A DNA stretch of 32,000 nucleotides from Methanothermobacter thermautotrophicus str. Delta H (GTDB lineage: Archaea; Methanobacteriota; Methanobacteria; Methanobacteriales; Methanothermobacteraceae), in contig NC_000916.1 in assembly GCF_000008645.1 (NCBI RefSeq), positions 30,001 to 62,000 on the forward strand. Direction: 5' to 3'. This document shows, in pieces, positions 11,043 through 29,127 of this stretch; positions within the stretch are counted from its first letter, which is position 1, and every line of letters starts with the position of its first letter. The translations under genes were made by a program, and so were the position numbers. The notes beneath the pieces were generated by a model, which did not search any database, was not told the DNA's origin, and was given only the letters and a program-made list of their open reading frames with translations.

Positions 11043-11426
11043 AGGCTGGCCCTACATAATCGAAAAAGAGGGTTTAGGATGGAAAGGTACATGGAGGTTA
11101 CAAAGCCCAATATAAGCCTTCTTAGTACTATCATCTAAACCTTCAAGGTTTACTGTGCCATTACCATCCAAGAGCGAATCTAACTTTTCAGATATTATGG
11201 CTTGGCCAAGTTCCCGAGCCCATTCTGTCTGTTGGTGGTAGTAGCAGTATGCTCCCATGAAAGCATAGATCATGTCCCTTACTATCCCTGTTGCATGGTC
11301 TATGATGAGGTATCTTCCCTGCCCGTCACTGATAAGCGTGTAATTCTCGCTTTCGAGGATGTTTAGTGACCCGCCGTTGAGGAGTGTTAGGCCTATTCCT
11401 GTTGTGTGGAGGTTTTGATCCTGGGA
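10646..11426 (-). pseudogene. Orphan C-terminal cassette E2 (5'-truncated copy of the large-protein C-terminus, internally frameshifted)
   Basis: It covers ORFs 11052..11273 (MIYAFMGAYCYYHQQTEWARELG..) and 10646..11134 (..LIGLNMAAYATIIAY..GEDHCIHYIEIPKNPDGSLRWEDAAYI). An extra T near 11100-11110 shifts the frame. There is no signal peptide and no N-terminal domains. Confidence 0.7.
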
Positions 11427-12183
11427 TTTGGGTTTATGGTTGATTTTTTTTGGATGGTGAGTTCTTTCAGGGCTTTTTTGGCTTTTTTGTATTCTGGGTC
11501 TATTTTCAGGGCTTTTTCATAGCATTTTAGTGCTTCTTTGTGTTTGCCGAGTTTTTGTAGTGTTTTTCCTTGCATGTACCATAGTGTTTTGTTTTGGGGG
11601 GTTTAGTTTGAGGGCTTTCTTGTAGCATTTCAGGGATTCCTCTGGTTTTTTGAGGTCTTCTAGGATTATGCCTTTCCATTTCCATGCATCGGCGAATTCG
11701 GGGTTTATTTCAAGGGCTTTTTGAAAGCATTCCAGCGCATCCTTATATTTTCCAAGTTCTTCGAGGACTAGTCCTTTGTTGTTCCATGTTTTGTCGTCTT
11801 CTGGATCTATTTCCAGGGCTTTTTCATAGCATTCTAGTGCCTCCTCATATCTCCCAAGTTCACTGAGGACTACTCCTTTGTTGTTCCATGCTTCTGCAAG
11901 TTTGGGGTTTATCTGTAATGCTTTTTCATAGCATTCTAGTGACTCATCATATCTCCCAAGTTCATTGAAAACTAGTCCTTTGTTGTTCCAAGCTTTATCA
12001 TCTTGTGGATTTAATTGGAGAACTTTGTCATAACATTTTAATGCTTCTTCATATATCTTAAGGTTATGTAATGTTATTCCTTTAGTTCCCCAAGCTCTAT
12101 AATTTTTTGGATTTAGCTCTATGGCTTTTTCGAAACATTTTAGTGCCTTTTTGTATTTTTTAAGGTAAATTAGAACGGAGCCT
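11131..12183. repeat. ~1.05-kb direct repeat (partner 21040-22092, offset 9909)
   Basis: Identical side-frame ORFs 11393/21302 and 11684/21593. Lines compared by eye at both ends. Confidence 0.8.
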
Positions 12184-12235
12184 TCCCCTAGCCATCCAAT
12201 CCTTTATTTTCTTAAGGGGGTTCATATTCCAGCCT
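11393..12235 (-). pseudogene. TPR gene remnant (internal deletion, in-frame stop, 3' frameshift)
   Basis: 11131-12183 matches 21040-22092 (offset 9909). At 12184 the sequence jumps straight to the TPR 5' end (..ccatccaatcctttattttcttaagggggttcat) with a tag stop. It carries the same G6 run frameshift (11596-11601) as the copy at 21505-21510. Confidence 0.65.
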
Positions 12236-12345
12236 CTCTCAACTTCTTTTTCATGTAATCGTTGGGTCCTAGTATGCAAGTTTTTATCGTCTCATGATTC
12301 TGATAGGCATCCTATGCTTGCAGCGGAACCTATTATGGGTTGATT
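12236..12345 (-). pseudogene. Decayed 3' end of a type-2 (..NYLEKKLREAGG) C-terminal module
   Basis: ~110 nt resemble 22566-22680 and 14439-14550 by eye (agcctctctcaacttctttt..cctagtatgca..) but carry many substitutions and no open frame. Confidence 0.4.
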
Positions 12346-12660: not shown

Positions 12661-13235
12661 CTAAATGTATATTGTTTCATTCTCTCTTAGCGTATCATCT
12701 GGATTTTTAGGAATCTCCTTGTAGTGTATACAATTATCCGCACCAATGTATGCTTCCAGTTTGTATCCATATATCGGGCCACGATGAAGGGATATATACT
12801 TCCAGTATTCCCTAGGTAGGTAATGATCCCTTATATTAAGAATCAAATCCCCTTCTGCAATAATACAAAAAACAAGGCTACAGTTGCCACAAAAGATCCT
12901 CCTTCTAACATAAAATAACAGCCACCAACCACACCTACTGCATCTAGAATATCCTTTGGGATGTATGTTTGATGTTCCACGATAAATTCTTTGATGCTAC
13001 CTGTAATGTTGTTGAGTTTGGAGTCTATGTAGGCTATTGTTGTTGCGTATGCTGCCATGTTAACTCTTATGAGGCCCTGACCCACCAGGCCATAACTGAT
13101 GATTTCCAAAGGTCATGGGATTGTGTGGGGCGGGTTGTATTGGGCTAATAAGGCCTCTTGAAGGCTTTTCTCGCGTTGTCCTTTAAGCCTTCAAAGGTTT
13201 GCTGTGCTGTTATCCTAAGAGTGACTTTAGCCTTT
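12661..13235 (-). pseudogene. Orphan C-terminal cassette F (decayed, several frameshifts)
   Basis: ORFs 12843..13109 and 12661..12846 join as ..AEGDLILNIRDHYLPREYWKYISLHRGPIYGYKLEAYIGADNCIHYKEIPKNPDD. Its 5' part is homologous to the copy-B region ERLKSLLDGNGTVNLEGL.. but is broken by stops. The motif residues are degenerate (ADNCIHY). Confidence 0.65.
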
Positions 13236-14438
13236 CATTTGGAGTTCTTTCAGGGCTTTTTTGGCTTTTTTGTATTCTGGGTCTATTTTCAGGGCTTTTT
13301 TGTAGGATTTTTTGGCTTTTTGGTGTTTTCCAAGTTTTTGTAGTGTTTTTCCTTGCATGTACCATAGTGTTTTGTCTTGGGGGTTTAGTTTGAGGGCTTT
13401 CTCGTAGCATTTCAGGGCTTCCTCTGGTTTTTTGAGGTCTTCCAGGATTATACCTTTCCATTCCCATGCATCGGCGAATTCTGGGTTTATTTCAAGGGCT
13501 TTTTCAAAACATTCCAGCGCCTCCTCATATTTTCCAAGTTTCCTGAGGAGTACTCCCTTGTTAGCCCATGTTTCGTCGTTTTCTAGGTTTATTTCTAAGG
13601 CTTTTTCATAGCATTCCAATGCCTCATCATATCTCTTAAGTTCTTCAAGGACTACTCCTTTGTTGTTCCATGCTTTTGCATTTTTTTGGTTTATTTCTAA
13701 GGCTTTTTCATAGCATTCTATTGCTTTTTCAGGTTTACCGATTGTGTCAAGGAGCGCTCCTTTGTTGTTCCATGTTCCATCGTCTTGTGGATCTATTTGT
13801 AGTGCCCTTCCATAGCATTCCAATGCCTCATCATATCTCTTAAGTTCTTCAAAAATTAGTGCTTTGTTGTACCATGCCTCTACGAATTCTGCGTTTATCT
13901 GTAATGCTTTTTCATAGCATTCCAATGCCTCCTCATATTTTCCGAGACTGCGTAATCCGTTACCTTTATTATACCATGCTTTTGCATTTTTTTGGTTTAT
14001 TTCTAAGGCTTTTTCATAGCATTCTATTGCTTTTTCAGGTTTACCGATTGTGTCAAGGAGCGCTCCTTTGTTGTTCCATGTTCCATCGTCTTGTGGATCT
14101 ATTTGTAGTGCCCTTTCATAGCATTCCAATGCCTCATCATATCTCTTAAGTTCTTTAAGGACTACTCCTTTGTTGTTCCATGCTTCTGCTAGTTTTGGAT
14201 TGTTTTTGAGGATTTTTTCATAACATTTTAAGGCTTTCTCTGGTCTTTTGAGTTTTAGTAGTGTCATTGCATTATAGTGCAAGATTTCCGGGTCGTTTGG
14301 ACTCGCCTTGAGGGCTTTCCTGAATTCTTTAAGAGCTTCTTTGTATTTTCCCTGTTTTAGGCTTGATCGGCCCCCGCTGAGGTGCCATCCAGCCTTTCCC
14401 CTGGCTATCCAATCCTTTATCTTCTTAAGGGGGTTCAT
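13227..14438 (-). CDS. TPR repeat protein (~11 TPR units), coupled to the upstream type-2 module
   Basis: 34-aa periodicity (..AWxNKGxxLxxLxRYDEALECYEKALxIxP..). ATGA start/stop overlap with 14435..15385. No catalytic domain. Confidence 0.8.
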   Translation of the reverse strand: MNPLKKIKDWIARGKAGWHLSGGRSSLKQGKYKEALKEFRKALKASPNDPEILHYNAMTLLKLKRPEKALKCYEKILKNNPKLAEAWNNKGVVLKELKRYDEALECYERALQIDPQDDGTWNNKGALLDTIGKPEKAIECYEKALEINQKNAKAWYNKGNGLRSLGKYEEALECYEKALQINAEFVEAWYNKALIFEELKRYDEALECYGRALQIDPQDDGTWNNKGALLDTIGKPEKAIECYEKALEINQKNAKAWNNKGVVLEELKRYDEALECYEKALEINLENDETWANKGVLLRKLGKYEEALECFEKALEINPEFADAWEWKGIILEDLKKPEEALKCYEKALKLNPQDKTLWYMQGKTLQKLGKHQKAKKSYKKALKIDPEYKKAKKALKELQMKG

Positions 14439-15385
14439 CCTCCAGCCTCTCTCAACTTCTTTTCTAGGTAGTTTTTGAATCCTAGTATGCAGGCTTCTAT
14501 TGTCTCACGATTCTCATAGGCTAATAGGCTTCCAATAGCCATCCCAGTGCCTATTACAGTACCTCCATGTTTTATGGCGCCCACGACATTCCCATCCTTT
14601 AAAGCCTCCTTGAACAGATCCCATTCATCCATCATGAGTTTACCTAAATTATTTATAGCCCTTCCTATATCGTCGGGATCGCCACCAACACCACCACTGC
14701 TAATCACCCTTAGAGTATCTACGGCTTCTCTATACTCATTTATCGCTTGACTCCATTCGTCAGACTGTCTTGATAGTATTTCAAGATAGTTTTGTATTGG
14801 TTGTGTGTCTCCTGTTAGTAGTGTGTAGGCGATGAATGTTGGCAGACCAGCGGGTGAGAGTAACATCATGGCATCTTCGATGTATGGGAGCCACTCAGGA
14901 TGTTCGATGAGGATATAAGCGACTATTGCAACAACTATTCCTATGCCAGCTGTCGCCGGCGCTGACAAGGCTCCTGCTTCGAGGATGGCGACTTCAGCTC
15001 CTCCTTCGAAGCCGACGACTTCAGCTCCTGAAACACCAGCAAATCCAATGAACTTCCACAAACCGGTCTCATTCAGTAGTTCTTTTGCGAGGTTGGCTGC
15101 CCATTCTGTCTGCAGGTGGCTGAAACAATATGCCCCCATAACATTCTTAAAGATATTGACATCCCTCACTATCCCTGTTGCAGTGTCGATGATCAGGTAG
15201 TCATTATCATAGTTTATTATGGTGTAGTTCCCAGCTTTTGTAATATTTAGTTTTTCTCCGTTCAGGAGCCTGTATGCTATGCTTGTGATCGCAGCACCTT
15301 CCATGATATCCCCTATATTGTCGAGGCTTCCATTGTATGGGAATAGGCGTTGCATTGAACTCTGAGGGGTTTGATGTCCCGACAA
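14435..15385 (-). CDS. Type-2 C-terminal module: junction block fused to a different Gly/Ala-rich hydrophobic C-terminus (likely start at ATG 15304)
   Basis: AITSIAYRLLNGEKLNITKAGNYTIINYDNDYLIIDTATGIVRDVNIFKNVMGAYCFSHLQTEWA aligns with the junction block of the 837/840-aa proteins. The rest (..ATAGIGIVVAIVAYILIEHPEWLPYIED..GGTVIGTGMAIGSLLAY..NYLEKKLREAGG) is unrelated to them. The listed start is TTG. ATG 15304 has TAGGGGAT 5 nt upstream. Confidence 0.6.
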   Translation of the reverse strand: MSGHQTPQSSMQRLFPYNGSLDNIGDIMEGAAITSIAYRLLNGEKLNITKAGNYTIINYDNDYLIIDTATGIVRDVNIFKNVMGAYCFSHLQTEWAANLAKELLNETGLWKFIGFAGVSGAEVVGFEGGAEVAILEAGALSAPATAGIGIVVAIVAYILIEHPEWLPYIEDAMMLLSPAGLPTFIAYTLLTGDTQPIQNYLEILSRQSDEWSQAINEYREAVDTLRVISSGGVGGDPDDIGRAINNLGKLMMDEWDLFKEALKDGNVVGAIKHGGTVIGTGMAIGSLLAYENRETIEACILGFKNYLEKKLREAGG

Positions 15386-15401: not shown

Positions 15402-15677
15402 TTATACCCCTGGAGATGCAATTAAACCCACTATAAGGAGCATTACCATCATCCATCTTATTTCATACTCTTTTTCCTTCAACTCGTAGTAGAGCCAGCA
15501 TAAAAGGAGAAGAGTGAACAAGCCTAAAGGGGCTGCTATTAGGGACAAAACATCACAATGATACTTAAGCGCAAGAATACATAGGAACATAACTATGCAG
15601 ATAAGAGGATAAGCCCTCTTATACCAAGATTCATAATCCAATAAGATCCCCTCCACTTTAGATATATACTGCTTCAT
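15402..15677 (-). CDS. Small membrane ORF, family 1 (DYES..EIRWM), putative immunity-like partner of large protein A (probable TTG start at 15641)
   Basis: 2-3 TM helices. GGAGGGG at 15648-15654 and TTG at 15641 reproduce the RBS/TTG arrangement of paralogues 20180..20425 and 23298..23534. It lies 16 nt after the protein A stop. Confidence 0.6.
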   Translation of the reverse strand: MKQYISKVEGILLDYESWYKRAYPLICIVMFLCILALKYHCDVLSLIAAPLGLFTLLLLCWLYYELKEKEYEIRWMMVMLLIVGLIASPGV

Positions 15678-18171
15678 CCCACCTCAAACTACCATCAGGA
15701 TTCTTCGGTATTTCAATATAGTGTATACAATGATCCTCACCAACATAACATCTCAACTCATAACCATCGTACCAGGAACGATGATACGATATATACTTCC
15801 AATACTCTTTTGGAAGATAATAATCTCTAAAGCTCAATATTTTATCACCAAACCACATACAAAACCCAATTGACCCTAATATCGCCCCAGCACCTCCTTT
15901 TGACACGTATCCAAAAACAGTAAGTAAAATATCTATAATGTCTTTTGGAATGTATGTTTGGTGTTCTATGATGAATTTTTTGATATCGTCTGTGATGTTT
16001 TGGAGGCTTGTGTAGGCTATTGTTGTTGCATATGCTGCCATGTTGAGTCCTATAAGTCCCTGACCCACAAGAGCATAATTGAGGATATCAACGAAAGCCA
16101 TTGGACCTTCCAGGGCAATGTACATGGAGATTACAAGGCCAATATAGGCCTTCTTGATACTATCATCTAAACCTTCAAGGTTTACTGTGCCATTACCATC
16201 CAAGAGCGAATCTAACTTTTCAGAGAATATTATGGCTTGGCCAAGTTCCCGGGCCCATTCTGTTTGTTGGTGGTAGTAGCAGTATGCTCCCATGAAAGCA
16301 TAGATCATGTCCCTTACTATCCCTGTTGCATGGTCTATGATGAGGTATCTTCCCTGCCCGTCACTGATAAGCGTGTAATTCCCGCTTTCGAGGATGTTTA
16401 GTGACCCGCCGTTGAGGAGTGTTAGGCCTATTCCTGTTGTGGGCGCGCTTGTGGGGTCTGATCCTGGGAAGAGGGCCTCCATCACATAGTATTCTATTGG
16501 ATTTATAGCTGATGTTCTCGCATAATTGAATGCTTTAATGTTTTCGGGTGTGCCTTCTGCTTTCACGGCCATGTTGTGGTTGCATTCGAGGCTTATCCAT
16601 GTCCCTGGGCTGTGGTCTCCTGCTGAGACCATCACTGGCATGGTCCTGGTCCATGTTACATTATAGCGCGTGGCTGCTTCTTCTGCGATGAGATCGTGGA
16701 GGTATATTACTTCAAGGCCTGTTAGGAATGTTCCGTGGGCTGCCTTTAATGGTCCGGGCTCGTATGTCCTGTTTAGCCACTTTTGTAATGTCTGGTTTGT
16801 TATCTTCCCTGTGGCGAGGGTGTAGGTTATGATGGCGTCGTAGTTGCTAGCCTCCCAGATGAGAGTGTCGTTTATTATGATATTGGGTCCTGTTTCTCCT
16901 GGTGGGTGTATGTATTGGCCGTTTGTGTAGAGTAGGAGGAGTGTTCTTGTTGATTTGTTCCCTGGGAATGTTATATTGGCTATTGTCACCTTTTCCTCGC
17001 CGGGATACTCCACACTGACCTGTAAAGGGTCTATGCACTTGTTATAGTTTGTGAGTATGAATATCTTTTCTGCCTGGGTTAAATTGAAGTTGTTGAGATA
17101 TTCATTCACTTGAGGTTCTGCTCCGAGTTTTGTGTAAATTTCTATGAGTCTGTTCAGGCCAGCTATGACTTGCCAGACTATTTCTCTTTGACTCTGGCTG
17201 TTAGCCTGGTAGAATGGGTTAGTGACCTCGGCTAGTTTGTATGCTATGCCATCCTCCACAAGGAATATTGTTTCATTGAATAGGCCCGAAGATATAGCCC
17301 CTATACTAATCCATTTAACCGTGTCATTGAGCGGAATTTTAAATGTTAAATTTAGGGGCTTCCCAGAGGATGTTGCCGTGGAATTAACATGGACCGTTGC
17401 AAGCATAACCTCCAATGTAATAGTCTTCGTGTCTGTTATGCCATAGCCTTGGACTGTTAGGGTTACTTTGTAGGTTCCTGGTTTGTAGGCGTGTACTGGA
17501 TTCTTCTGGGTGCTTGTGCTTTGGTCTCCGAAGTCCCATTTGTAGTATTGTATTGTCCCTGTACTTTTATCCTGGAATTGGACATTATAGCCTTGTATTG
17601 TGTAGGTGTAGTCTGCCCTTGGCCTTACTATAATTCCACCCTTACCTGTAACATATTCTACTGTTACATAGTTTGGTAGTCTTCCTGTGCTGTTGTAGAA
17701 GTTTATTATCCTTGCATTGGCATATATTAGGCTTTCTGGGCGGACTTGTCCAATGGCTGTGCTGGCATAATTCGGCGACCTCCCATAGGATTCCATGAAA
17801 GCCTTAACATTCTTTGCCACCTGCAAGTATCCTGCTTTTTGGAGTGTTCCTGTTCCTGTTCCACTTGGACTGGGCGGGGAGGCCATACTATTGAATGACA
17901 AGCCAACTCTCCTACCCTGATCGAGGTTTATGATGGTTGAGGATGAGGCGTAGAGGTAGTCGTCTGCCGACACATTCTTACCGTTAATCACAACCTGTGA
18001 TGGTATTTTTTCATGTTGTGCAGTGTAGTTTCCGATCAGCTTTGAAACGTCACAAATCTCATCATAGGATAAACTCACAGCTGAAGAACTGCCCAAAAGA
18101 CAGAAAAAGGACAGGATCGCCAGAAAAAACAACAACCTCCTCACAGCCACCACCATAATATGATAACACAT
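15658..18171 (-). CDS. Large secreted protein A: signal peptide, 2 pseudomurein-binding-like repeats, PKD domain, unassigned ~300-aa domain, junction block, variable hydrophobic C-terminus with a conserved His/Cys end module (polymorphic-toxin-like)
   Basis: 837-aa ORF. IGNYTAQHEKIPSQVVINGKNVSADDYLYASSSTI and VKAFMESYGRSPNYASTAIGQVRPESLIYANARII resemble PMBR repeats. YKWDFGDQSTSTQKNPVHAYKPGTYKVTLTV is a classic PKD signature. Residues 23-640 are identical to protein B. The start may be ATG 18156 (MVVAVRRLL). Confidence 0.7.
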   Translation of the reverse strand: MCYHIMVVAVRRLLFFLAILSFFCLLGSSSAVSLSYDEICDVSKLIGNYTAQHEKIPSQVVINGKNVSADDYLYASSSTIINLDQGRRVGLSFNSMASPPSPSGTGTGTLQKAGYLQVAKNVKAFMESYGRSPNYASTAIGQVRPESLIYANARIINFYNSTGRLPNYVTVEYVTGKGGIIVRPRADYTYTIQGYNVQFQDKSTGTIQYYKWDFGDQSTSTQKNPVHAYKPGTYKVTLTVQGYGITDTKTITLEVMLATVHVNSTATSSGKPLNLTFKIPLNDTVKWISIGAISSGLFNETIFLVEDGIAYKLAEVTNPFYQANSQSQREIVWQVIAGLNRLIEIYTKLGAEPQVNEYLNNFNLTQAEKIFILTNYNKCIDPLQVSVEYPGEEKVTIANITFPGNKSTRTLLLLYTNGQYIHPPGETGPNIIINDTLIWEASNYDAIITYTLATGKITNQTLQKWLNRTYEPGPLKAAHGTFLTGLEVIYLHDLIAEEAATRYNVTWTRTMPVMVSAGDHSPGTWISLECNHNMAVKAEGTPENIKAFNYARTSAINPIEYYVMEALFPGSDPTSAPTTGIGLTLLNGGSLNILESGNYTLISDGQGRYLIIDHATGIVRDMIYAFMGAYCYYHQQTEWARELGQAIIFSEKLDSLLDGNGTVNLEGLDDSIKKAYIGLVISMYIALEGPMAFVDILNYALVGQGLIGLNMAAYATTIAYTSLQNITDDIKKFIIEHQTYIPKDIIDILLTVFGYVSKGGAGAILGSIGFCMWFGDKILSFRDYYLPKEYWKYISYHRSWYDGYELRCYVGEDHCIHYIEIPKNPDGSLRWDEAVYI
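16252..18105. repeat. Long direct repeat, copy 1 (partner 24753-26606, offset 8501), apparently 100% identical
   Basis: The encoded proteins are identical. Three pairs of alternative-frame ORFs are also identical with the same offset (16847/25348, 17222/25723, 17491/25992). The boundary lines were compared by eye. Confidence 0.85.
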
Positions 18172-18604: not shown

Positions 18605-18883
18605 TCAATGATATAGCCGAGAAAGGAGAAGTACACCTACTAGGAGCATTATAACAAAAAGTGTTTCGATCACACCTTTTTCCTCGCCTCTGAACACCTT
18701 CTTCGACAGAAAATAGATTAGCAAAAACATATTTCCCAGTAAAAGACACGTTAACAATATAATAGGTAGTTCAGGCCTAGTAGGCAGTAAAGCCAACTTA
18801 CTACCCGTAAACAGTAAAACCAACAAAATTGTAAAACACGATAACGACCCCAAAAACTGAAAAAGCTTAGATGTATGCTGCAT
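18605..18883 (-). CDS. Small membrane ORF, family 2 (putative immunity-like partner of cassette E1)
   Basis: 92 aa. It shares RPELPIILLTCLLLGNMFLLIYFLSKKVFRGEEKGV with 10384..10662. Its ATG is embedded in the cassette's last codons. Confidence 0.6.
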   Translation of the reverse strand: MQHTSKLFQFLGSLSCFTILLVLLFTGSKLALLPTRPELPIILLTCLLLGNMFLLIYFLSKKVFRGEEKGVIETLFVIMLLVGVLLLSRLYH

Positions 18884-19274
18884 CCTCCCACCTCAAACTA
18901 CCATCAGGATTCTTCGGTATTTCAATATAGTGTATACAATGATCCTCACCAACATAACTTCTCAACTCATAACCATAAATCCAGGTACGATGAATCGAAA
19001 TATACTTCCAATATTCTTGGGGAAGATAATGAGTCCGTATCCTTAAAATCAAATCACCTTCAGCCACTATCACACTTATAAAACCCAAAGGACCCATAAC
19101 AGCAGTGACACCGGCAACAGTTGCAATATCTAATATACCATGGAAAACATCCTCTAGAATGCATGTTTGGTGTTCTATGATGAATTTTTTGATATCGTCT
19201 GTGATGTTTAGGAGGCCTGTGTAGGCTATTATTGTTGCATATGCTGCCATGTTGAGTCCTATAAATCCCTCCAC
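18867..19274 (-). CDS. Orphan C-terminal cassette E1 (5'-truncated; no ATG, listed start is GTG inside ..LVEGFIG..)
   Basis: ..EGFIGLNMAAYATIIAYTGLLNITDDIKKFIIEHQTCILEDVFHGILDIATVAGVTAVMGPLGFISVIVAEGDLILRIRTHYLPQEYWKY..GEDHCIHYIEIPKNPDGSLRWEDAAYI. Homology to the full-length genes begins only at ~19295. Confidence 0.7.
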   Translation of the reverse strand: MEGFIGLNMAAYATIIAYTGLLNITDDIKKFIIEHQTCILEDVFHGILDIATVAGVTAVMGPLGFISVIVAEGDLILRIRTHYLPQEYWKYISIHRTWIYGYELRSYVGEDHCIHYIEIPKNPDGSLRWEDAAYI

Positions 19275-19404
19275 AAGAGCATAATTGAGGATATCCTGGA
19301 ATGTAAATCCACATAGACTTCAACATTATCATGAGTTGTGATATTTTTTATAGGTTTTTTCTAAGATTTTCCAGTTTTTTTGGGCGTGGGGGGCTGCTTT
19401 TCTT

Positions 19405-19647
19405 TTATGCAAGGCCAAAGAAGCCTATAATTACAAGCAAGCCTCCAAGTGCTCTGACAGTTTCATTTTCAGTTTTTCCCAACTCATCCTTGCCTAATAG
19501 GTAAATTAAGAGAAACATGTTCACTATGTAAATGGAATAGACAATTAATTTGCTGATAATATAGGGGAAACGGAGACTAACCACAACCAATGCAGCAGTA
19601 AAATAAGAAAGGAAATAACTAAAATAAAAAATGTACTTTACCATCAT
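19405..19647 (-). CDS. Small membrane ORF, distant family 2 (putative immunity-like partner of cassette D)
   Basis: 80 aa, 3 hydrophobic helices. It shares NMFLLIYLLGK with family 2. RBS AGGAGGA lies in the 13-nt gap after the cassette D stop. Confidence 0.55.
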   Translation of the reverse strand: MMVKYIFYFSYFLSYFTAALVVVSLRFPYIISKLIVYSIYIVNMFLLIYLLGKDELGKTENETVRALGGLLVIIGFFGLA

Positions 19648-19660
19648 ATCATCCTCCTAA

Positions 19661-20164
19661 TCAGATATACACTGCTTCATCCCATCTTAAAGTACCATCT
19701 GGGTTCTTTGGGATTTCAATGTAGTGTATGCAATGGTCTTCGCCAACATAAATTTTAAGTTCATAACCATGCCGCCAAGTTCTATGGTAAGAAACATATT
19801 TCCAATATTCAGTTGGAAGATAATTCGTTCTTACATTCACAATTAAATCACCTTCTGCTAATAGTAGAGAAGCAATCGAAAAAATACCACTTGCCAAGGT
19901 GACACCTTCACTACTAAGCTCTTTTAAACTCCATATAAAAAGAATCCCATCTATAATGTCCCCTCCAATGCATGTTTGGTGTTCTATGATGAATTTTTTG
20001 ATATCGTCTGTGATGTTTAGGAGGCCTGTGTAGGCTATTATTGTTGCATATGCTGCCATGTTGAGTCCTATGAGGCTGGCCCTACATAATCGAAAAAGAG
20101 GGTTTAGGATGGAAAGGTACATGGAGGTTACAAAGCCCAATATAAGCCTTCTTAGTACTATCAT
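19661..20164 (-). CDS. Orphan C-terminal cassette D (5'-truncated; the first ~10 listed residues are an out-of-frame artefact)
   Basis: The core GGDIIDGILFIWSLKELSSEGVTLASGIFSIASLLLAEGDLIVNVRTNYLPTEYWKY is unique. The end module is conserved. DNA homology (..LDGNSTVNLEGLDDSTKKAYIG) starts at ~20200, overlapping the preceding ORF's 3' end. It has the same extra-T frameshift as E2. Confidence 0.7.
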   Translation of the reverse strand: MIVLRRLILGFVTSMYLSILNPLFRLCRASLIGLNMAAYATIIAYTGLLNITDDIKKFIIEHQTCIGGDIIDGILFIWSLKELSSEGVTLASGIFSIASLLLAEGDLIVNVRTNYLPTEYWKYVSYHRTWRHGYELKIYVGEDHCIHYIEIPKNPDGTLRWDEAVYI

Positions 20165-20179
20165 CTAAACCTTCAAGGT

Positions 20180-20425
20180 TTACAGTGCTGTTGCCATCCA
20201 GGAAAAGGACGAGCCTACTACAAAGGTTATGGCCATTAACCATCGTATTTCATCCTCTCTTTCCTTCAATTTGAATTGGAGCCAGAATAGAAGAGAAAAA
20301 ATGAACAAGCCTAAAAGGTCTGCTATTGGAATCAAACCATTAAAATGTTTAATTCCAATGGAAAATAAAATAATATCGAGACAAAGAAGGGAATAAAGTA
20401 TATCGAGCAAAGATTCATAATCCAA
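20180..20425 (-). CDS. Small membrane ORF, family 1 (TTG start, RBS AGGAGGTG at 20433-20440)
   Basis: 81 aa. DYESLLD..EDEIRWLM is paralogous to 15402..15677 and 23298..23534. A decayed cassette-end remnant (~20446-20485) lies directly upstream. Confidence 0.6.
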   Translation of the reverse strand: MDYESLLDILYSLLCLDIILFSIGIKHFNGLIPIADLLGLFIFSLLFWLQFKLKEREDEIRWLMAITFVVGSSFSWMATAL

Positions 20426-20464
20426 GAAAAGACACCTCCTATATCATCCACTTAGACTACCCCA

Positions 20465-20554
20465 TTAGGGTTCGTTTGAGAATTTTAGCCCCATATAGTT
20501 GCCGCGGATCGTAAAATACGCCAAAAACTGAAAAAGCTTAGATGTATACTGCAT
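20465..20554 (-). pseudogene. Truncated family-2 membrane ORF remnant after cassette C
   Basis: MQYTSKLFQFL.. starts inside the last codons of cassette C exactly as in E1/E2, then diverges and stops after 29 codons. Confidence 0.45.
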
Positions 20555-21182
20555 CCTCCCACCTCAAACTACCATCAGGATTCTTCGGTATTTCAATATA
20601 GTGTATACAATGATCCTCACCAACATAACTTCTCAACTCATAACCATAAATCCAGGTACGATGAATCGAAATATACTTCCAATATTCTTGGGGAAGATAA
20701 TGATCTCTAAATGTAAGTATGCCATCACCTATCCGCATACACCATCCAATTGGTTGAAATATTTCACCACCATACCTTACTAACACATATGCCAAAACCT
20801 GGATCAAACAGTGAGCAGTATCTTCTGAGATGTATGTTTGGTGTTCTATGATGAATTTTTTGATATCGTCTGTGATGTTTAGGAGGCTTGTGTAGGCTAT
20901 TATTGTTGCATATGCTGCCATGTTGAGTCCTATAAATCCCTCCACAAGAGCATAATTGAGGATATCAACGAAAGCCATTGGACCTTCCAGGGCAATGTAC
21001 ATGGAGATTACAAGGCCAATATAAGCCTTCTTGATACTATCATCTAAACCTTCAAGGTTTACTGTGCCATTACCATCCAAGAGCGAATCTAACTTTTCAG
21101 ATATTATGGCTTGGCCAAGTTCCCGAGCCCATTCTGTCTGTTGGTGGTAGTAGCAGTATGCTCCCATGAAAGCATAGATCAT
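20538..21182 (-). CDS. Orphan C-terminal cassette C (homology extends 5' to ~21335; no N-terminal domains)
   Basis: The in-frame upstream extension reads TTGIGLTLLNGGSLNILESENYTLISDGQGRYLIIDHATGIVRD-MIYAFMG... The unique core is SEDTAHCLIQVLAYVLVRYGGEIFQPIGWCMRIGDGILTFRDHYLP. The end module is identical to that of E1/E2. Confidence 0.7.
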   Translation of the reverse strand: MIYAFMGAYCYYHQQTEWARELGQAIISEKLDSLLDGNGTVNLEGLDDSIKKAYIGLVISMYIALEGPMAFVDILNYALVEGFIGLNMAAYATIIAYTSLLNITDDIKKFIIEHQTYISEDTAHCLIQVLAYVLVRYGGEIFQPIGWCMRIGDGILTFRDHYLPQEYWKYISIHRTWIYGYELRSYVGEDHCIHYIEIPKNPDGSLRWEDAVYI

Positions 21183-21425
21183 GTCCCTTACTATCCCTGT
21201 TGCATGGTCTATGATGAGGTATCTTCCCTGCCCGTCACTGATAAGCGTGTAATTCTCGCTTTCGAGGATGTTTAGTGACCCGCCGTTGAGGAGTGTTAGG
21301 CCTATTCCTGTTGTGTGGAGGTTTTGATCCTGGGATTTGGGTTTATGGTTGATTTTTTTTGGATGGTGAGTTCTTTCAGGGCTTTTTTGGCTTTTTTGTA
21401 TTCTGGGTCTATTTTCAGGGCTTTT

Positions 21426-22565
21426 TCATAGCATTTTAGTGCTTCTTTGTGTTTGCCGAGTTTTTGTAGTGTTTTTCCTTGCATGTACCATAGTGTTTTG
21501 TTTTGGGGGGTTTAGTTTGAGGGCTTTCTTGTAGCATTTCAGGGATTCCTCTGGTTTTTTGAGGTCTTCTAGGATTATGCCTTTCCATTTCCATGCATCG
21601 GCGAATTCGGGGTTTATTTCAAGGGCTTTTTGAAAGCATTCCAGCGCATCCTTATATTTTCCAAGTTCTTCGAGGACTAGTCCTTTGTTGTTCCATGTTT
21701 TGTCGTCTTCTGGATCTATTTCCAGGGCTTTTTCATAGCATTCTAGTGCCTCCTCATATCTCCCAAGTTCACTGAGGACTACTCCTTTGTTGTTCCATGC
21801 TTCTGCAAGTTTGGGGTTTATCTGTAATGCTTTTTCATAGCATTCTAGTGACTCATCATATCTCCCAAGTTCATTGAAAACTAGTCCTTTGTTGTTCCAA
21901 GCTTTATCATCTTGTGGATTTAATTGGAGAACTTTGTCATAACATTTTAATGCTTCTTCATATATCTTAAGGTTATGTAATGTTATTCCTTTAGTTCCCC
22001 AAGCTCTATAATTTTTTGGATTTAGCTCTATGGCTTTTTCGAAACATTTTAGTGCCTTTTTGTATTTTTTAAGGTAAATTAGAACGGAGCCTTTATTGTA
22101 CCATGCATCTGCAAGTTTGGGGTTTATCTGTAATGCTTTTTCATAGCATTCTAGTGCCTCATCATATCTCCCAAGTTCTTTGAGGACTAGTGCTTTATTG
22201 TTCCATGCTCCTGCATACTTTGGATTTATTTTTAGTGCTTTTTCATAGCATTCTAGTGCCTCATCATATCTCCCAAGTTCTTTGAGGACTAGTCCTTTGT
22301 TGTTCCATGCTTCTGCAAGTTTTGGATTGTTTTTGAGGATTTTTTCATAGCATTCTAAGGCTTTCTCTGGTCTTTTGAGTTTTAGTAGTGTTATTGCATT
22401 GTAGTGGAGGATTTCTGGGTTGTTTGGTCTTGCTTTGAGGGCTTTCCTGAATTCTTTGAGGGCTTCTTTGTATTTTCCCTGTTTTAGGCTTGATCGGCCC
22501 CCAGCAAGGTGCCATCCAGCCTTTCCCTCGGCTATCCAATCCTTTATTTTCTTAAGGGGGTTCAT
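21426..22565 (-). CDS. TPR repeat protein, frameshifted near its 3' end (last TPR units continue in ORF 21302..21484)
   Basis: 379 aa of TPR units. At the G6 run 21505-21510 the frame slips (..KLNPPKQNTMVH.. instead of ..KLNPQ.KTLWYMQGKTLQKLGKH..). ATGA overlap with 22562..23164. Confidence 0.75.
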   Translation of the reverse strand: MNPLKKIKDWIAEGKAGWHLAGGRSSLKQGKYKEALKEFRKALKARPNNPEILHYNAITLLKLKRPEKALECYEKILKNNPKLAEAWNNKGLVLKELGRYDEALECYEKALKINPKYAGAWNNKALVLKELGRYDEALECYEKALQINPKLADAWYNKGSVLIYLKKYKKALKCFEKAIELNPKNYRAWGTKGITLHNLKIYEEALKCYDKVLQLNPQDDKAWNNKGLVFNELGRYDESLECYEKALQINPKLAEAWNNKGVVLSELGRYEEALECYEKALEIDPEDDKTWNNKGLVLEELGKYKDALECFQKALEINPEFADAWKWKGIILEDLKKPEESLKCYKKALKLNPPKQNTMVHARKNTTKTRQTQRSTKML

Positions 22566-23164
22566 CCTCCAGCCTCTCTCAACTTCTTTTCTAGGTAGTT
22601 TTTGAATCCTAGTATGCAGGCTTCTATTGCTTCACGATTCTCATAGGCCAATAGGCTTCCAATAGCCATCCCAGTGCCTATTATAGTGCCTCCATGTTTT
22701 ATGGCGCCCACAACATCCCCATCCTTTAAAGCCTCCTTGAACAGATCCCATTCATCCATCATGAGTTTACCTAAATTATTTATAGCCCTTCCTATATCAT
22801 CAGGGTCTGGGGATGATGGGACATTCACTTGAGGAAGCTCCCCCCAATTTGTAATTCTTTTCTTCCATTCCTTGTCAGGTATTATTTTTGCTAATTCTTG
22901 TATTGGTTGTGTGTCTCCTGTTAGTAGTGTGTAGGTGATGAATGTTGGCAAACCACCAGGTGAAAGTAGCATGCTCATCATCATAGCATCTTCGATGTAT
23001 GGTAGCCATTCAGGATGCTCCATGATAATAATTAGAGCCAGGGTAATAACCAAGCCTAAACCTAGTGTTTCTGGGGCTGAAAGCACACCCAATTCAAGTG
23101 CAGCTGCTTCGGCTGTTGAAACACCAGCAACACCAATAAATTTCCACCAACCACTCCAATTCAA
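22562..23164 (-). CDS. Type-2 C-terminal module, 5'-truncated and frameshifted copy
   Basis: Homologous, with several substitutions and small indels, to the C-terminal ~200 aa of 14435..15385 (..IEHPEWLPYIEDAMM..NYLEKKLREAGG). Upstream, MGAYY(fs)HQQTELAKKLGNEILNWSGWWKF shows a 1-nt deletion, and homology ends at ~23225. Confidence 0.6.
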   Translation of the reverse strand: MNWSGWWKFIGVAGVSTAEAAALELGVLSAPETLGLGLVITLALIIIMEHPEWLPYIEDAMMMSMLLSPGGLPTFITYTLLTGDTQPIQELAKIIPDKEWKKRITNWGELPQVNVPSSPDPDDIGRAINNLGKLMMDEWDLFKEALKDGDVVGAIKHGGTIIGTGMAIGSLLAYENREAIEACILGFKNYLEKKLREAGG

Positions 23165-23297: not shown

Positions 23298-23534
23298 TTA
23301 TGTTCCGAATATAATTAATGCAAGGATTATGGCAATCATCCATCTTATTTCTTCTTTTTTTCCCTTCAACTCATCCACGAAGAAGTGCAACCAGAATAAA
23401 AGGAAATAAATAAACACGGTTAAAAGGGCCGCTATTGGAACCAAACCATTAAAATGCCTAATCCCAACAAAATATAAAATAATATCAACACAAATAAGAA
23501 AATAAACCTTCCCAAACAAAGATTCATAATCCAA
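23298..23534 (-). CDS. Small membrane ORF, family 1 (TTG start)
   Basis: 78 aa. DYESLFG..KEEIRWMIAI. It lies 15 nt after the stub stop at 23550-23552. Confidence 0.55.
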   Translation of the reverse strand: MDYESLFGKVYFLICVDIILYFVGIRHFNGLVPIAALLTVFIYFLLFWLHFFVDELKGKKEEIRWMIAIILALIIFGT

Positions 23535-23549
23535 AAAAGACCCTTCTCA

Positions 23550-23640
23550 CTAACAATATACTGCTTCATCCCACCGTAGAGTACCATCAGGGTTCTTCGG
23601 CATTCCATGTTGTATGCAATGGGATCCTTCATACTGAAGT
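23550..23640 (-). pseudogene. Stub of a cassette 3' end (last ~28 codons only)
   Basis: It reads YEGSHCIQHGMPKNPDGTLRWDEAVYC*, compared with YVGEDHCIHYIEIPKNPDGTLRWDEAVYI*. It abuts the stop of 23629..24045. Confidence 0.6.
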
Positions 23641-24149: not shown

Positions 24150-26672
24150 TTAAATATATACTGCTTCATCCCACCGTAGAGTACCATCAGGGTCCTTCGG
24201 TATTTCAATATAGTGTATACAATGATCCTCACCAACATAAGCCCTAAGCTCATAACCATGAGCCCATGTACGATGATATGCAATATATTTCCAATATTCC
24301 TCTGGGAGATAATGATCCCTAAAATCGAGTATCCCATTGCCTATAGCCATACACAAACCAACTGGCTGAAGTATTACCCCACCACCAGATTTCGATAATA
24401 CATATATTACTGCTGGAAGCATATATTCAACAAAATCATTTGAAATGTATGTTTGATGTTCCACGATAAATTCTTTGATGCTGCCTGTAATGTTGTTGAG
24501 TTTGGAGTTTATGTAGGCTATTGTTGTTGCGTATGCTGCTATGTTAACTCCTATGAGGCCCTGACCCACCAAGCCATAACTGATGATTTCAACAAAGGTC
24601 ATGGGGTTATGTAGGGCGAGTCGCATTGAAACTATAAGACCCATGAAGGCTTTTCCCACACTATCCCTTAAACCTTCAAGATTTACTGTGCCATTACCAT
24701 CCAAGAGTGACTTTAACCTTTCAGAGGACATTATGGTTCGGCCAAGTTCTTGGGCCCATTCTGTTTGTTGGTGGTAGTAGCAGTATGCTCCCATGAAAGC
24801 ATAGATCATGTCCCTTACTATCCCTGTTGCATGGTCTATGATGAGGTATCTTCCCTGCCCGTCACTGATAAGCGTGTAATTCCCGCTTTCGAGGATGTTT
24901 AGTGACCCGCCGTTGAGGAGTGTTAGGCCTATTCCTGTTGTGGGCGCGCTTGTGGGGTCTGATCCTGGGAAGAGGGCCTCCATCACATAGTATTCTATTG
25001 GATTTATAGCTGATGTTCTCGCATAATTGAATGCTTTAATGTTTTCGGGTGTGCCTTCTGCTTTCACGGCCATGTTGTGGTTGCATTCGAGGCTTATCCA
25101 TGTCCCTGGGCTGTGGTCTCCTGCTGAGACCATCACTGGCATGGTCCTGGTCCATGTTACATTATAGCGCGTGGCTGCTTCTTCTGCGATGAGATCGTGG
25201 AGGTATATTACTTCAAGGCCTGTTAGGAATGTTCCGTGGGCTGCCTTTAATGGTCCGGGCTCGTATGTCCTGTTTAGCCACTTTTGTAATGTCTGGTTTG
25301 TTATCTTCCCTGTGGCGAGGGTGTAGGTTATGATGGCGTCGTAGTTGCTAGCCTCCCAGATGAGAGTGTCGTTTATTATGATATTGGGTCCTGTTTCTCC
25401 TGGTGGGTGTATGTATTGGCCGTTTGTGTAGAGTAGGAGGAGTGTTCTTGTTGATTTGTTCCCTGGGAATGTTATATTGGCTATTGTCACCTTTTCCTCG
25501 CCGGGATACTCCACACTGACCTGTAAAGGGTCTATGCACTTGTTATAGTTTGTGAGTATGAATATCTTTTCTGCCTGGGTTAAATTGAAGTTGTTGAGAT
25601 ATTCATTCACTTGAGGTTCTGCTCCGAGTTTTGTGTAAATTTCTATGAGTCTGTTCAGGCCAGCTATGACTTGCCAGACTATTTCTCTTTGACTCTGGCT
25701 GTTAGCCTGGTAGAATGGGTTAGTGACCTCGGCTAGTTTGTATGCTATGCCATCCTCCACAAGGAATATTGTTTCATTGAATAGGCCCGAAGATATAGCC
25801 CCTATACTAATCCATTTAACCGTGTCATTGAGCGGAATTTTAAATGTTAAATTTAGGGGCTTCCCAGAGGATGTTGCCGTGGAATTAACATGGACCGTTG
25901 CAAGCATAACCTCCAATGTAATAGTCTTCGTGTCTGTTATGCCATAGCCTTGGACTGTTAGGGTTACTTTGTAGGTTCCTGGTTTGTAGGCGTGTACTGG
26001 ATTCTTCTGGGTGCTTGTGCTTTGGTCTCCGAAGTCCCATTTGTAGTATTGTATTGTCCCTGTACTTTTATCCTGGAATTGGACATTATAGCCTTGTATT
26101 GTGTAGGTGTAGTCTGCCCTTGGCCTTACTATAATTCCACCCTTACCTGTAACATATTCTACTGTTACATAGTTTGGTAGTCTTCCTGTGCTGTTGTAGA
26201 AGTTTATTATCCTTGCATTGGCATATATTAGGCTTTCTGGGCGGACTTGTCCAATGGCTGTGCTGGCATAATTCGGCGACCTCCCATAGGATTCCATGAA
26301 AGCCTTAACATTCTTTGCCACCTGCAAGTATCCTGCTTTTTGGAGTGTTCCTGTTCCTGTTCCACTTGGACTGGGCGGGGAGGCCATACTATTGAATGAC
26401 AAGCCAACTCTCCTACCCTGATCGAGGTTTATGATGGTTGAGGATGAGGCGTAGAGGTAGTCGTCTGCCGACACATTCTTACCGTTAATCACAACCTGTG
26501 ATGGTATTTTTTCATGTTGTGCAGTGTAGTTTCCGATCAGCTTTGAAACGTCACAAATCTCATCATAGGATAAACTCACAGCTGAAGAACTGCCCAAAAG
26601 ACAGAAACAAGAGAGGATTGCCAGAAGAAACAATAACCTCCTCACAGCCACCACCATAATATGATAACACAT
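24150..26672 (-). CDS. Large secreted protein B: same N-terminal 640 aa as protein A, different C-terminal core (polymorphic-toxin-like)
   Basis: 840-aa ORF. From ..TEWA it diverges: QELGRTIMSSERLKSLL..SNDFVEYMLPAVIYVLSKSGGGVILQPVGLCMAIGNGILDFRDHYLPEEYWKYIAYHRTWAHGYELRAYVGEDHCIHYIEIPKDPDGTLRWDEAVYI. Confidence 0.7.
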   Translation of the reverse strand: MCYHIMVVAVRRLLFLLAILSCFCLLGSSSAVSLSYDEICDVSKLIGNYTAQHEKIPSQVVINGKNVSADDYLYASSSTIINLDQGRRVGLSFNSMASPPSPSGTGTGTLQKAGYLQVAKNVKAFMESYGRSPNYASTAIGQVRPESLIYANARIINFYNSTGRLPNYVTVEYVTGKGGIIVRPRADYTYTIQGYNVQFQDKSTGTIQYYKWDFGDQSTSTQKNPVHAYKPGTYKVTLTVQGYGITDTKTITLEVMLATVHVNSTATSSGKPLNLTFKIPLNDTVKWISIGAISSGLFNETIFLVEDGIAYKLAEVTNPFYQANSQSQREIVWQVIAGLNRLIEIYTKLGAEPQVNEYLNNFNLTQAEKIFILTNYNKCIDPLQVSVEYPGEEKVTIANITFPGNKSTRTLLLLYTNGQYIHPPGETGPNIIINDTLIWEASNYDAIITYTLATGKITNQTLQKWLNRTYEPGPLKAAHGTFLTGLEVIYLHDLIAEEAATRYNVTWTRTMPVMVSAGDHSPGTWISLECNHNMAVKAEGTPENIKAFNYARTSAINPIEYYVMEALFPGSDPTSAPTTGIGLTLLNGGSLNILESGNYTLISDGQGRYLIIDHATGIVRDMIYAFMGAYCYYHQQTEWAQELGRTIMSSERLKSLLDGNGTVNLEGLRDSVGKAFMGLIVSMRLALHNPMTFVEIISYGLVGQGLIGVNIAAYATTIAYINSKLNNITGSIKEFIVEHQTYISNDFVEYMLPAVIYVLSKSGGGVILQPVGLCMAIGNGILDFRDHYLPEEYWKYIAYHRTWAHGYELRAYVGEDHCIHYIEIPKDPDGTLRWDEAVYI
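24753..26606. repeat. Long direct repeat, copy 2 (partner 16252-18105)
   Basis: See copy 1. Confidence 0.85.
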
Positions 26673-27203: not shown

Positions 27204-27599
27204 TTATTTCCTTCTTTGTTGATCAAATGTAAGTAAAATTAACGCCGCTATAGCCACTACAGTCATAATAGTTCTTAGTGATAATGGCTGTTGGGTTAAT
27301 ACTACTATATAAAAAAATAAAGCCAAAAATATTGTGTAAAACAAGAGTTTTAATCTTCTTCCAGGACTATTATAAATACTTTGAAGTCTGATGTATCCAT
27401 AGAAAGTTAGTATCATTAACATGAACATTAACAATCTTAACTCTAAATATTGGAAAAAATTAAATTCTATGTATAAAAAAATGCCAAAAAATACCACGCA
27501 CAAAAGTAATGTTATTCTTTTTTCATTTTTTTCACTTATCTCAAACATACTTCTTCCACTCCCTAAAATTAAAATAATAATTAGGTATATGTCCACCAT
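27204..27599 (-). CDS. Multi-TM ORF, family 3 (putative immunity-like partner of cassette K2; likely start at ATG 27548)
   Basis: 4 hydrophobic helices. LTFYGYIRL and ALFFYIVVLTQQPLSLRT parallel LSLYGYRT and ALFLYIILVLQPALNTL of 28390..28758. Confidence 0.5.
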   Translation of the reverse strand: MVDIYLIIILILGSGRSMFEISEKNEKRITLLLCVVFFGIFLYIEFNFFQYLELRLLMFMLMILTFYGYIRLQSIYNSPGRRLKLLFYTIFLALFFYIVVLTQQPLSLRTIMTVVAIAALILLTFDQQRRK

Positions 27600-27808
27600 C
27601 CCTCATTAACATGCGCTGTTCCTATAGTACCTAAGTAAGCTGTCCCTAATAAACCAAAAAACTTACCCACTGGATGATCTGTGTAACCTAGCGTCACACA
27701 AACCCAGGCACACCCATAGTAGACTCTCCACCAGTTAAACTCCTTACCATGCCATTTACCCTTCTTCTTCAACCGGTACTTCCAGTTTTTACCAATGATC
27801 TTTTGCAT
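27581..27808 (-). CDS. Leader+cargo cassette K2 (5'-truncated; frame opens only at ..KVLSREEMQKIIGK)
   Basis: MQKIIGK-NWKYRLKKKGKWHGKEFNWWRVYYGCAWVCVTLGYTDHPVGKFFGLLGTAYLGTIGTAHVNEGWWTYT. ~95 nt appear identical by eye to K1 (27729-27816 vs 28928-29015). Confidence 0.55.
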   Translation of the reverse strand: MQKIIGKNWKYRLKKKGKWHGKEFNWWRVYYGCAWVCVTLGYTDHPVGKFFGLLGTAYLGTIGTAHVNEGWWTYT

Positions 27809-27998
27809 TTCCTCTCTGCTTAGGACTTTTTATCTGCTATGTTCGCGATTTGATCTCTATCCGTGCTTATATGGTCTTTTGCCTTTGACGTTCTTGCATC
27901 TCCCCTAATTTTACTGGTCGTTGATTCTATTAGCTTTTGGATCCCCCTCTTTTGTGCTTGTCAATGTAAAGGTCCGATAGGAAATGCTGGTTGGAGGG

Positions 27999-28758: not shown

Positions 28759-28794
28759 TATAAAAACCTCCTGAATAAGAAAAATGGTGGTACT

Positions 28795-29067: not shown

Positions 29068-29127
29068 GTTTATTCATCTTAGATGTTTAAGATCTGGGCT
29101 TCCATTTTGTTTTTTGTTCGCTGTATT

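Follow-up and report, generated by a model that had tools for sequence, protein, structure and literature searches.

How should a small gene beside a variable one be read: as a partner matched to the variable part, or as a neighbor inherited along with it? A variable island in Methanothermobacter thermautotrophicus Delta H raises this question. We analyzed 32,000 nucleotides (nt) of its genome (NC_000916.1, positions 30,001 to 62,000 of the forward strand), referred to here as the window. The window carries two genes for surface proteins with PMBR and PKD domains (A and B), the orphan cassettes C, D, E1, E2, and F, and small membrane open reading frames (ORFs) downstream. An initial annotation had noticed that the class of the hypervariable core in a cassette goes with the family of the adjacent small ORF, and had remarked, for a small sample, that cognate toxin/immunity pairs would predict such a linkage. 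On a slight balance of probability, we attribute the link mainly to the co-inheritance of 3' modules whose cores are separately exchangeable, within a locus that is polymorphic-toxin-like or a recognition system.

Anatomy of the surface proteins and orphan cassettes

The surface proteins are built from a constant scaffold and a variable end. Protein B matches PMBR (1e-26) and PKD_4 (8e-14) in Pfam and contains three pseudomurein-binding repeats. At the DNA level, A and B show 100% identity to just past the QTEWA junction and 55-90% thereafter; a conserved N-terminal scaffold with a sharp fall in identity at a junction ahead of a variable C-terminus is a mark of polymorphic toxins. The C-terminal part, the type I module, consists of hydrophobic helices, a hypervariable hydrophobic core, and a Cys/His tail. 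In the cassette alignment, the N-terminal side is conserved (GLNMAAYATIIAYT.LLNITDDIKKFIIEHQT), the core is hydrophobic, 42-47 residues long, and nearly devoid of conservation, and the 54-residue tail is again conserved (YLPxEYWKY..H....GYEL..YVGEDHCIHYIEIPKNPDG.LRW..A.YI, also written YLPxEYWKY...DHCIHYIEIPKNPDG).

Cores fall into 2 classes. Class 1 ends in ..G[DNE]xILxFRD and includes A (GDKILSFRD), B (GNGILDFRD), and C (GDGILTFRD). Class 2 ends in ..EG[DE]LI..R and includes D, E1, and E2, all of which end in AEGDLI(V/L)x(V/I)R. Cassette F belongs to class 2 as well: its intact allele (proteins P0003/P0006) has a core that ends in AEGDLILNIRD. The orphan cassettes are start-less copies of the last 135-215 residues of A and B and lie downstream of the big genes. 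Orphan C-terminal cassettes with a homology stub, a second mark of polymorphic toxins, are thus represented by C, D, E1, E2, and F, together with the type II orphans described below. The surface genes, cassettes, and stub, all on the minus strand like every gene relevant here, are as follows.

24150-26672, minus strand: full-length surface protein B, 840 amino acids (aa), with signal peptide, 3 PMBR repeats, PKD domain, central domain, QTEWA junction, and type I C-terminal module
24315-24443, minus strand: core B, inside protein B
15658-18171, minus strand: full-length surface protein A, 837 aa, same architecture as B
15823-15948, minus strand: core A, inside protein A
20538-21182, minus strand: cassette C, 214 aa, class-1 core at 20703-20828
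19661-20164, minus strand: cassette D, 167 aa, MIVLRRL stub, class-2 core at 19826-19966
18867-19274, minus strand: cassette E1, class-2 core at 19032-19157
10646-11134, minus strand: cassette E2, core at 10811-10936, identical to the E1 core
12661-13109, minus strand: cassette F, broken by a frameshift or stop
23541-23607, minus strand: tail-end stub, 67 nt, repeat family D8, with about 80% identity to the A and B ends

The small membrane ORFs

A small multi-pass membrane protein is encoded directly downstream of the cassettes. The ORFs start between -19 and +19 nt relative to the cassette stop, so that they overlap or abut the tail, and all have Shine-Dalgarno-like motifs. Hydropathy suggests 3 transmembrane (TM) segments in families 1, 2, and 3 and about 4 in the 138-aa ORF that follows B.

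15402-15677, minus strand: family-1 3-TM ORF after A, 91 aa, DYES..EIRWM, with GGAGGGG 7 nt ahead of an internal TTG (LDYES)
20180-20425, minus strand: family-1 ORF, 81 aa, TTG start with AGGAGGTG 7 nt upstream, 113 nt downstream of C
23298-23534, minus strand: family-1 ORF, 78 aa, behind the tail-end stub
20465-20554, minus strand: family-2 remnant, 29 codons (MQYTSKLFQFL...), overlapping the end of C
19405-19647, minus strand: family-2 3-TM ORF after D, 80 aa, AGGAGG 5 nt ahead of the start
18605-18883, minus strand: family-2 3-TM ORF after E1, 92 aa, 17-nt overlap with the tail
10384-10662, minus strand: family-2 ORF after E2, 92 aa
12385-12642, minus strand: family-3 3-TM ORF after F, 85 aa, relatives at loci L007, L014, and L017
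23629-24045, minus strand: 4-TM ORF, 138 aa, between the tail of B and the stub

The NMFLLIY(F/L)L motif is common to the intact family-2 ORFs, those behind D, E1, and E2. The probable start of family 1 is the TTG in LDYES, which has GGAGG 7 nt upstream; with that start, the 81-aa and 78-aa copies are not N-terminally truncated. Pairwise hhalign comparisons among the 3 families returned probabilities of 22%, 45%, and 0.6%, and common ancestry is not demonstrable by this means. A Pfam search with the cassettes and small ORFs found nothing above noise.

Is this a set of genes, or debris? Cassettes and small ORFs might be functionless, decaying leftovers of segmental duplication, with their pairing a property of duplicated DNA. 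Several features of the island suit such a view. E1 and E2 are recent duplicates, as are the 2 A/B units; F is frameshifted in 4 assemblies, its lesion recurring in L018, L021, and L023; stubs and remnants are many; and the ratio of nonsynonymous to synonymous substitution rates (dN/dS) of the small ORFs is about 1.2-1.9 between very close alleles, a value based on few substitutions. Over larger, species-level distances, however, dN/dS is 0.16-0.48, which identifies the small ORFs as genuine genes, and across that divergence they keep open frames and Shine-Dalgarno motifs. Decay also sits badly with flanks that are held near-identical while the cores stay distinct, and with alternative C-termini that are used in the expressed gene of other strains. 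We consider decay very improbable.

Core class and ORF family in the window and beyond

The coordinates, ORFs, and motifs of the initial annotation were each correct on recheck. The cores of D, E1, and E2 each precede a family-2 ORF; E1 and E2 are duplicates (cores identical, DNA 93-100% identical) and therefore count as one observation. The A core is followed, as described, by the family-1 ORF with DYES..EIRWM. The 78-aa family-1 ORF had been placed behind a cassette stub, and the 67-nt tail stub was indeed found there. C had been portrayed as a class-1 core joined to an E-type tail and a 29-codon family-2 remnant, and its flanks and tail are 98-100% identical to those of E1 at the DNA level. 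The ORF after F had been called a singleton; this did not hold, since it belongs to family 3, with homologs behind EGELIL-type cores in L007, L014, and L017. The ORF after B does encode 4 TM segments but is not unrelated to everything else, being 38% identical to an ORF at L022 (14379-14654) that follows a different C-terminal type.

The window by itself has no statistical power for a class-family link. M. marburgensis Marburg (L002, CP001710) carries a single unit in the order A, 91-aa family-1 ORF, type II module, TPR gene, C, 81-aa family-1 ORF, D, family-2 ORF, E, family-2 ORF, with the ortholog of A at 4887-7400. The same array order means that the pairs of the window are inherited rather than independent, and its independent evidence comes down to 3 inherited pairs (A, D, and E) against 3 exceptions (B, C, and F).

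We therefore turned to a larger sample: 41 instances of a cassette with its downstream ORF, representing 24 unique combinations, taken from the window and 18 other loci. The instances were extracted by script from contigs that code for family proteins and from a metagenome scan. The family is tiny, with 12 protein clusters in 5.8 billion sequences and 41 representatives in 1.84 billion. A scan of genome contigs yielded a single distant locus, L001, with a tail fragment only.

Among unique combinations, class-1 cores precede a family-1 ORF in 7/9 and another ORF in 2/9, versus 1/14 and 13/14 for class 2 (Fisher p=0.001). Tightly coupled pairs, defined by an ORF start within 45 nt of the cassette stop, give the same picture: family 1 stands behind class 1 in 4/5 and behind class 2 in 0/9 (p=0.005), and class 2 goes with family 2 or 3 in 9/9. 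The association is significant for unique combinations, but when these are collapsed to lineages the counts are 2/3 and 0/7, which is not significant (p=0.067). Further independent pairs support the link: family-1 variants follow the G and G' cores (L004, L010/L011), a family-2 variant follows the P0012 core (L006), and family 3 follows EGELIL cores in the 3 loci named above. At the level of classes, the link is real in the wider sample, though thin inside the window.

What the small ORF travels with

A link between classes does not say which part of the module the ORF is linked to. We used the conserved tail as a linkage control: it separates the core from the ORF on the DNA and is no candidate for a specificity element. 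The mirror-tree approach did find co-clustering of core and ORF (Mantel r=0.45, p=1e-4), but that of tail and ORF was stronger (r=0.54, p=1e-4). Partial correlations were 0.23 (p=0.001) for core and ORF given the tail and 0.39 (p=1e-4) for tail and ORF given the core. Within class 2 the tail again led (0.78 vs 0.65), and among tight pairs only, the two correlations were equal (0.72 and 0.69). So the class-family link extends beyond the window, but it is not specific to the core: a tail that predicts the ORF better than the core does makes the co-variation what a co-inherited 3' module would produce.

Close alleles point the same way. Between A and A' the core is 74% identical and the ORF 100%; between G and G' the values are 98% and 81%; between E1 and E2, 100% and 76%; and between I and K, 40% and 83%. 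One identical 81-aa family-1 ORF stands 113 nt behind the cores B (L003), B' (L008), C (window and Marburg), and E (L009), although these cores are only 23-50% identical. Two mutually compensating indels (+1/-1), located at T-runs 47 nt from each other, distinguish the partner ORFs of E1 and E2, and TM1 is thereby read in different frames, hydrophobic in both. A 2-nt deletion in L010/L011 falls at the same T-run. At short evolutionary range, core and ORF are decoupled, and fine-scale co-variation is absent.

Natural recombinants display the exchange of cores directly. C and E1 share flanks of about 130 nt and 185 nt around cores that are 37-57% identical. In a DNA alignment, L009 at the position of C has both flanks identical to those of the window C, and the core of E1. 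The array position that follows D is occupied by an E core in the window and by a C-like core in L011, between an identical upstream spacer and a downstream family-2 ORF that is about 97% identical. In these recombinants the ORF goes with the tail and the array position, not with the core. Both cassettes of L011 also carry a genome-specific flank variant, NMAGYVATIAY, which points to concerted evolution, that is, homogenization, of the flanks. At L003, 10001-14566 might be taken for an array of at least 5 tandem units of cassette and 81-aa ORF; we rejected it as a true array, the repeats being exact over 865 nt, at 2x coverage, with a loop through the shared flank.

These observations suggest a mechanism. 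Whole 3' modules (core, tail, and ORF) would descend from 2 old lineages, one of class 1 with family 1 and one of class 2 with families 2 and 3. The ORF would travel with the tail and the array position, and the core alone would be replaced by gene conversion between nearly identical flanks. The membrane-embedded end of the expressed protein would then change through recombination, either at the QTEWA junction or in the flanks of the core, and the small membrane proteins may serve as module-level partners, possibly immunity-like. Because the ORF moves with the tail and the core can be replaced alone, adjacency reflects linkage and is not evidence of a matched core/ORF pair.

The initial annotation had proposed otherwise: the core as specificity determinant of a membrane-acting toxin, the 3-TM ORF as its cognate immunity protein, and selection against mismatches. 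A hydrophobic core with a 3-TM partner does resemble pore-forming colicins and class II bacteriocins with their membrane immunity proteins, and a Peptidase_C39 cluster lies next door. The class-wise agreement of the tight pairs is also what this proposal expects. So is an excess of nonsynonymous change in the cores: close core alleles differ by 28 nonsynonymous and 5 synonymous changes, versus 16 and 16 for the tail (p=0.004). Small ORFs likewise stay intact behind deleted or frameshifted cores (the 78-aa and 81-aa family-1 ORFs and family 3 after the broken F), as orphan immunity genes do. Each of these points has to be set against a tail that is no worse a predictor of the ORF than the core, identical ORFs behind divergent cores and identical cores before divergent ORFs, cores swapped without their ORF, a TM1 that differs by a compensated frameshift between partners of identical cores, and the lack of any toxin homology. 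On balance we judge strict core/ORF matching to be unlikely. A toxin/immunity relationship is plausible for module types, unproven for individual cores, and contradicted at the level of core alleles.

Several points also weigh against co-inheritance with exchangeable cores. One concerns the two kinds of junction at which a class-1 core of the C type stands before a family-2 ORF: the ORF is broken in both cases, by independent lesions, truncation to 29 codons in the window and in Marburg and loss of 2 nt in L010/L011, and this fits a cognate requirement better than linkage. Several recombinants come from short-read metagenome contigs, in which identical flanks of 130-185 nt could yield chimeric joins; L009 and L003 (the latter an obvious assembly loop at 2x coverage) inspire the least confidence, whereas allele-specific differences in the recombinants of L010/L011 and L008 make those harder to explain as misassembly. 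The sample is small and phylogenetically narrow, as the 41 representatives among 1.84 billion proteins make plain. Finally, the searches revealed no toxin fold, no enzymatic motif, and no structural match, so that the part of the interpretation that invokes a conflict system stands by analogy only.

What the type I module might do

Searches for function returned little. No toxin domain was recognized in the cassettes by Pfam or by a PDB sequence search; neither resource gave a match to known pore-forming or bacteriocin domains, and a profile of core plus tail had no match among PDB sequences. An AlphaFold2 (AF2) model of the 210-aa C-terminal module, built on a 12-sequence alignment, had a mean predicted local distance difference test (pLDDT) score of 43, with only the tail beta-hairpin at 70-80, and was unusable for a fold search. 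The AF2 model of the 395-aa central domain (pLDDT 60, predicted template modeling score 0.65) had no Foldseek hit against the PDB below E=0.3. The residues DHCIHY...N in the tail were considered as an HNH-like nuclease motif and rejected: Pfam gave no support, and the version in the Peptidase_C39 protein lacks the second half.

The anatomy, mosaicism, core swaps, statistical links, and signs of selection are observed; any toxic, immunity, or recognition activity is an inference. One tentative possibility is that the type I module is a membrane-acting effector or self-recognition determinant of methanogens, with specificity in a membrane-embedded segment of about 45 residues that is shuffled as a mini-cassette, and with the 3-TM proteins as class-level immunity or recognition partners. 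If true, it would amount to an archaeal system for conflict or kin discrimination whose design has no earlier description. We know of almost nothing on antagonism and self-recognition among methanogens. The locus is compact and occurs in cultivable Methanothermobacter strains, and natural variants swap only the 130-nt core, so that a specificity pairing of membrane segment and small membrane protein is directly testable.

The distribution of the module brings in a serious rival. In a profile search, the type I core and tail also end beta-helix, Big, and CHB_HEX surface proteins of 1096-1625 aa (P0022, P0032, P0044, and P0053), which makes the module common to adhesin-like proteins. P0022 and P0044 also have the central domain and the TGxV.D junction motif; in P0053 the central domain is divergent. 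The module could be a C-terminal membrane anchor with a short cytoplasmic tail and the small ORFs its membrane partners, with variation serving surface remodeling or kin recognition of the Ids kind. Its presence at the ends of these proteins and of Peptidase_C39 proteins would follow naturally. The Peptidase_C39 version, one TM helix and a basic tail, has the topology of a classic anchor, and hydrophobic segments occur in all C-terminal types. A 2026 preprint describes membrane-anchoring domains as standard in such adhesin-like proteins; the likeness of our module to its 'MAD' class is one of description. A plain anchor, however, does not explain the arrays of orphan cassettes or the sharp recombination junction, and it leaves unexplained the module-specific partner genes (TPR for type II) and the elevated dN/dS in a buried segment; nor is co-variation of the Ids type seen. 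We give the membrane-anchor or recognition role a low probability, while treating it as a serious contender.

The analysis also carries a caution for genome mining: inference of cognate pairs from adjacency needs a linkage control, a purpose for which the conserved tail served here.

Other C-terminal types

Type I is not the only C-terminus in use. Two type II modules, each with a TPR gene, lie in the window.

14435-15385, minus strand: orphan type II module, 316 aa, LLNG..GNYT..YLIID.ATGIVRD..GAYC..QTEWA junction in common with A and B
13227-14438, minus strand: TPR gene, 403 aa, 4-nt overlap with the 316-aa type II module
22562-23164, minus strand: truncated type II module, 200 aa
21426-22565, minus strand: TPR gene, 379 aa, 4-nt overlap with the 200-aa type II module

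In P0014 and P0015, the full-length gene joins this N-terminal scaffold to a type II C-terminus beyond the GAYC..QTEWA junction. Behind type II stands a TPR gene, overlapping or adjoining it, in 7 cases: 14435 and 22562 in the window, L002 7673, the main gene and a 146-aa orphan at L022, and the main gene and a 154-aa orphan at L023. A type III module (..GGFDLL.NGLREYEQWY..) starts at the same GAYCYYHQQTEWA junction (L004 9664-10020, L006 2-819, L011 3488-4092, L007 33-714) and is followed by a 121-aa membrane ORF, or one of 113 aa in L007. All C-terminal types contain hydrophobic segments. Partner genes are therefore consistent by module type (type I with a 3-TM ORF, type II with TPR, and type III with a 113-121-aa TM ORF), not by core allele.

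The TPR genes are built of repeats with a 102-nt period, 20 copies of which form family D1 (window 11459-12300, 13242-14262, and 21368-22491). A partial TPR copy (about 11393-12300) lies between F with its family-3 ORF and E2, which indicates segmental rearrangement of the array.

The adjacent Peptidase_C39 cluster and the genomic setting

A bacteriocin-like cluster lies upstream of gene B.

27204-30524, minus strand: cluster of a Peptidase_C39 gene, 2 paralogous peptides, and multi-TM ORFs

The Peptidase_C39 match (7e-34) was obtained with the intact L003 copy, a single 297-aa ORF. In the window the gene seems split, with the signal peptide and the CGPAAL Cys motif in 30246-30524 and the remainder in 29620-30189/30324. 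The encoded protein ends with a miniature type I module made of a single TM helix and a basic tail (RDKYVPRKYWKY..DHCIHYVEY). The 2 paralogous peptides (28795-29067 and 27581-27808) share LSTEEMQKIIGKNWKYRLKKKGKWHGKEFNWW and carry a LSTEEMQKIIGK motif with GK in place of GG at the double-glycine site; a leader motif of the LSTEEMQKIIGK type was not found in A or B. A multi-TM ORF follows each cluster gene (29128-29583, 28390-28758, and 27204-27599).

Array and cluster occupy an AT-rich variable island of about 20 kb (about 10.3-30.5 kb of the window) in the Methanothermobacter genome, with a GC content of 0.35-0.47 versus 0.47-0.56 in the flanks. On one side the island is bordered by a CMD-family gene (9469-9813), on the other by a DUF2769 gene (31443-31754). 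Its neighbors differ among close relatives. The array lies between the DUF2769/Peptidase_C39 cluster and CMD/radical-SAM genes in the window and between Nre and SelR/MsrB genes in M. marburgensis; the DUF2769/Peptidase_C39 cluster is likewise upstream of the big gene in L003 and L023, and the L023 array terminates at a DUF169 gene. The whole array has thus moved or been rearranged among close relatives.

Comparison with known systems

The locus belongs among polymorphic, cassette-bearing surface-protein systems; what sets it apart is an internal, membrane-embedded variable segment between conserved flanks. Polymorphic toxin systems with arrays of orphan C-terminal (CT) and immunity genes (contact-dependent inhibition, or CDI, with cdiA-CT/cdiI, and Rhs) are reportedly the subject of work by Zhang et al. 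in 2012, and archaeal examples are said to have been predicted by Makarova et al. in 2019. The likeness is extensive: a large protein, secreted or on the surface, whose N-terminal part is conserved and which has a sharp junction motif, C-termini that alternate among strains, start-less downstream cassettes with a homology stub, and a small gene behind each cassette that is consistent by module type. Unlike those systems, ours has no recognizable toxin domain and no delivery machinery was identified. Its type I variable part is internal, about 45 residues long, and hydrophobic, with conserved sequence on both sides that makes it exchangeable without the downstream gene, and core alleles and small ORFs are not strictly paired.

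Colicins and class II bacteriocins, whose partner gene is often translationally coupled, share with type I cassettes a variable hydrophobic helical segment and a 3-4-TM gene directly downstream. The likeness to class II bacteriocins extends to the Peptidase_C39 gene and the peptides with a leader-like LSxEEMxxIxGK motif next door. There is, however, no sequence or structural similarity, and instead of being a released peptide, the module forms the terminus of a wall-bound protein of 840 aa; at the double-glycine site stands GK, not GG, and cleavage there is putative.

In Proteus mirabilis, the specificity of IdsD and IdsE resides in variable stretches within membrane segments of 2 adjacent gene products. 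A variable hydrophobic core beside a small membrane protein is a conceptual match. The Ids partners co-vary tightly, whereas here the divergence of core and ORF is decoupled; Ids uses type VI secretion, none of which is evident at this locus, and there is no homology. With the adhesin-like proteins of Methanobacteriales, our proteins have in common a C-terminal hydrophobic module that ends diverse large surface proteins.

The VARTIG modules of Thermococcales are organized like polymorphic toxin systems and have no identifiable toxin, and archaeal systems of this kind have been predicted but not characterized experimentally (PMC8416519). As in VARTIG, a large Ig/PKD-type surface protein, hypervariable in its C-terminal part, stands at the head of an archaeal island, and small, mostly membrane proteins downstream track subfamilies of the large protein (PMC8416519). 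The comparison is one of organization: the lineage is another, and PMBR and PKD domains stand here in place of the Ig domains of arCOG07710 (PMC8416519). In VARTIG the hypervariable part is an Ig domain; in Methanothermobacter it is hydrophobic and membrane-embedded.

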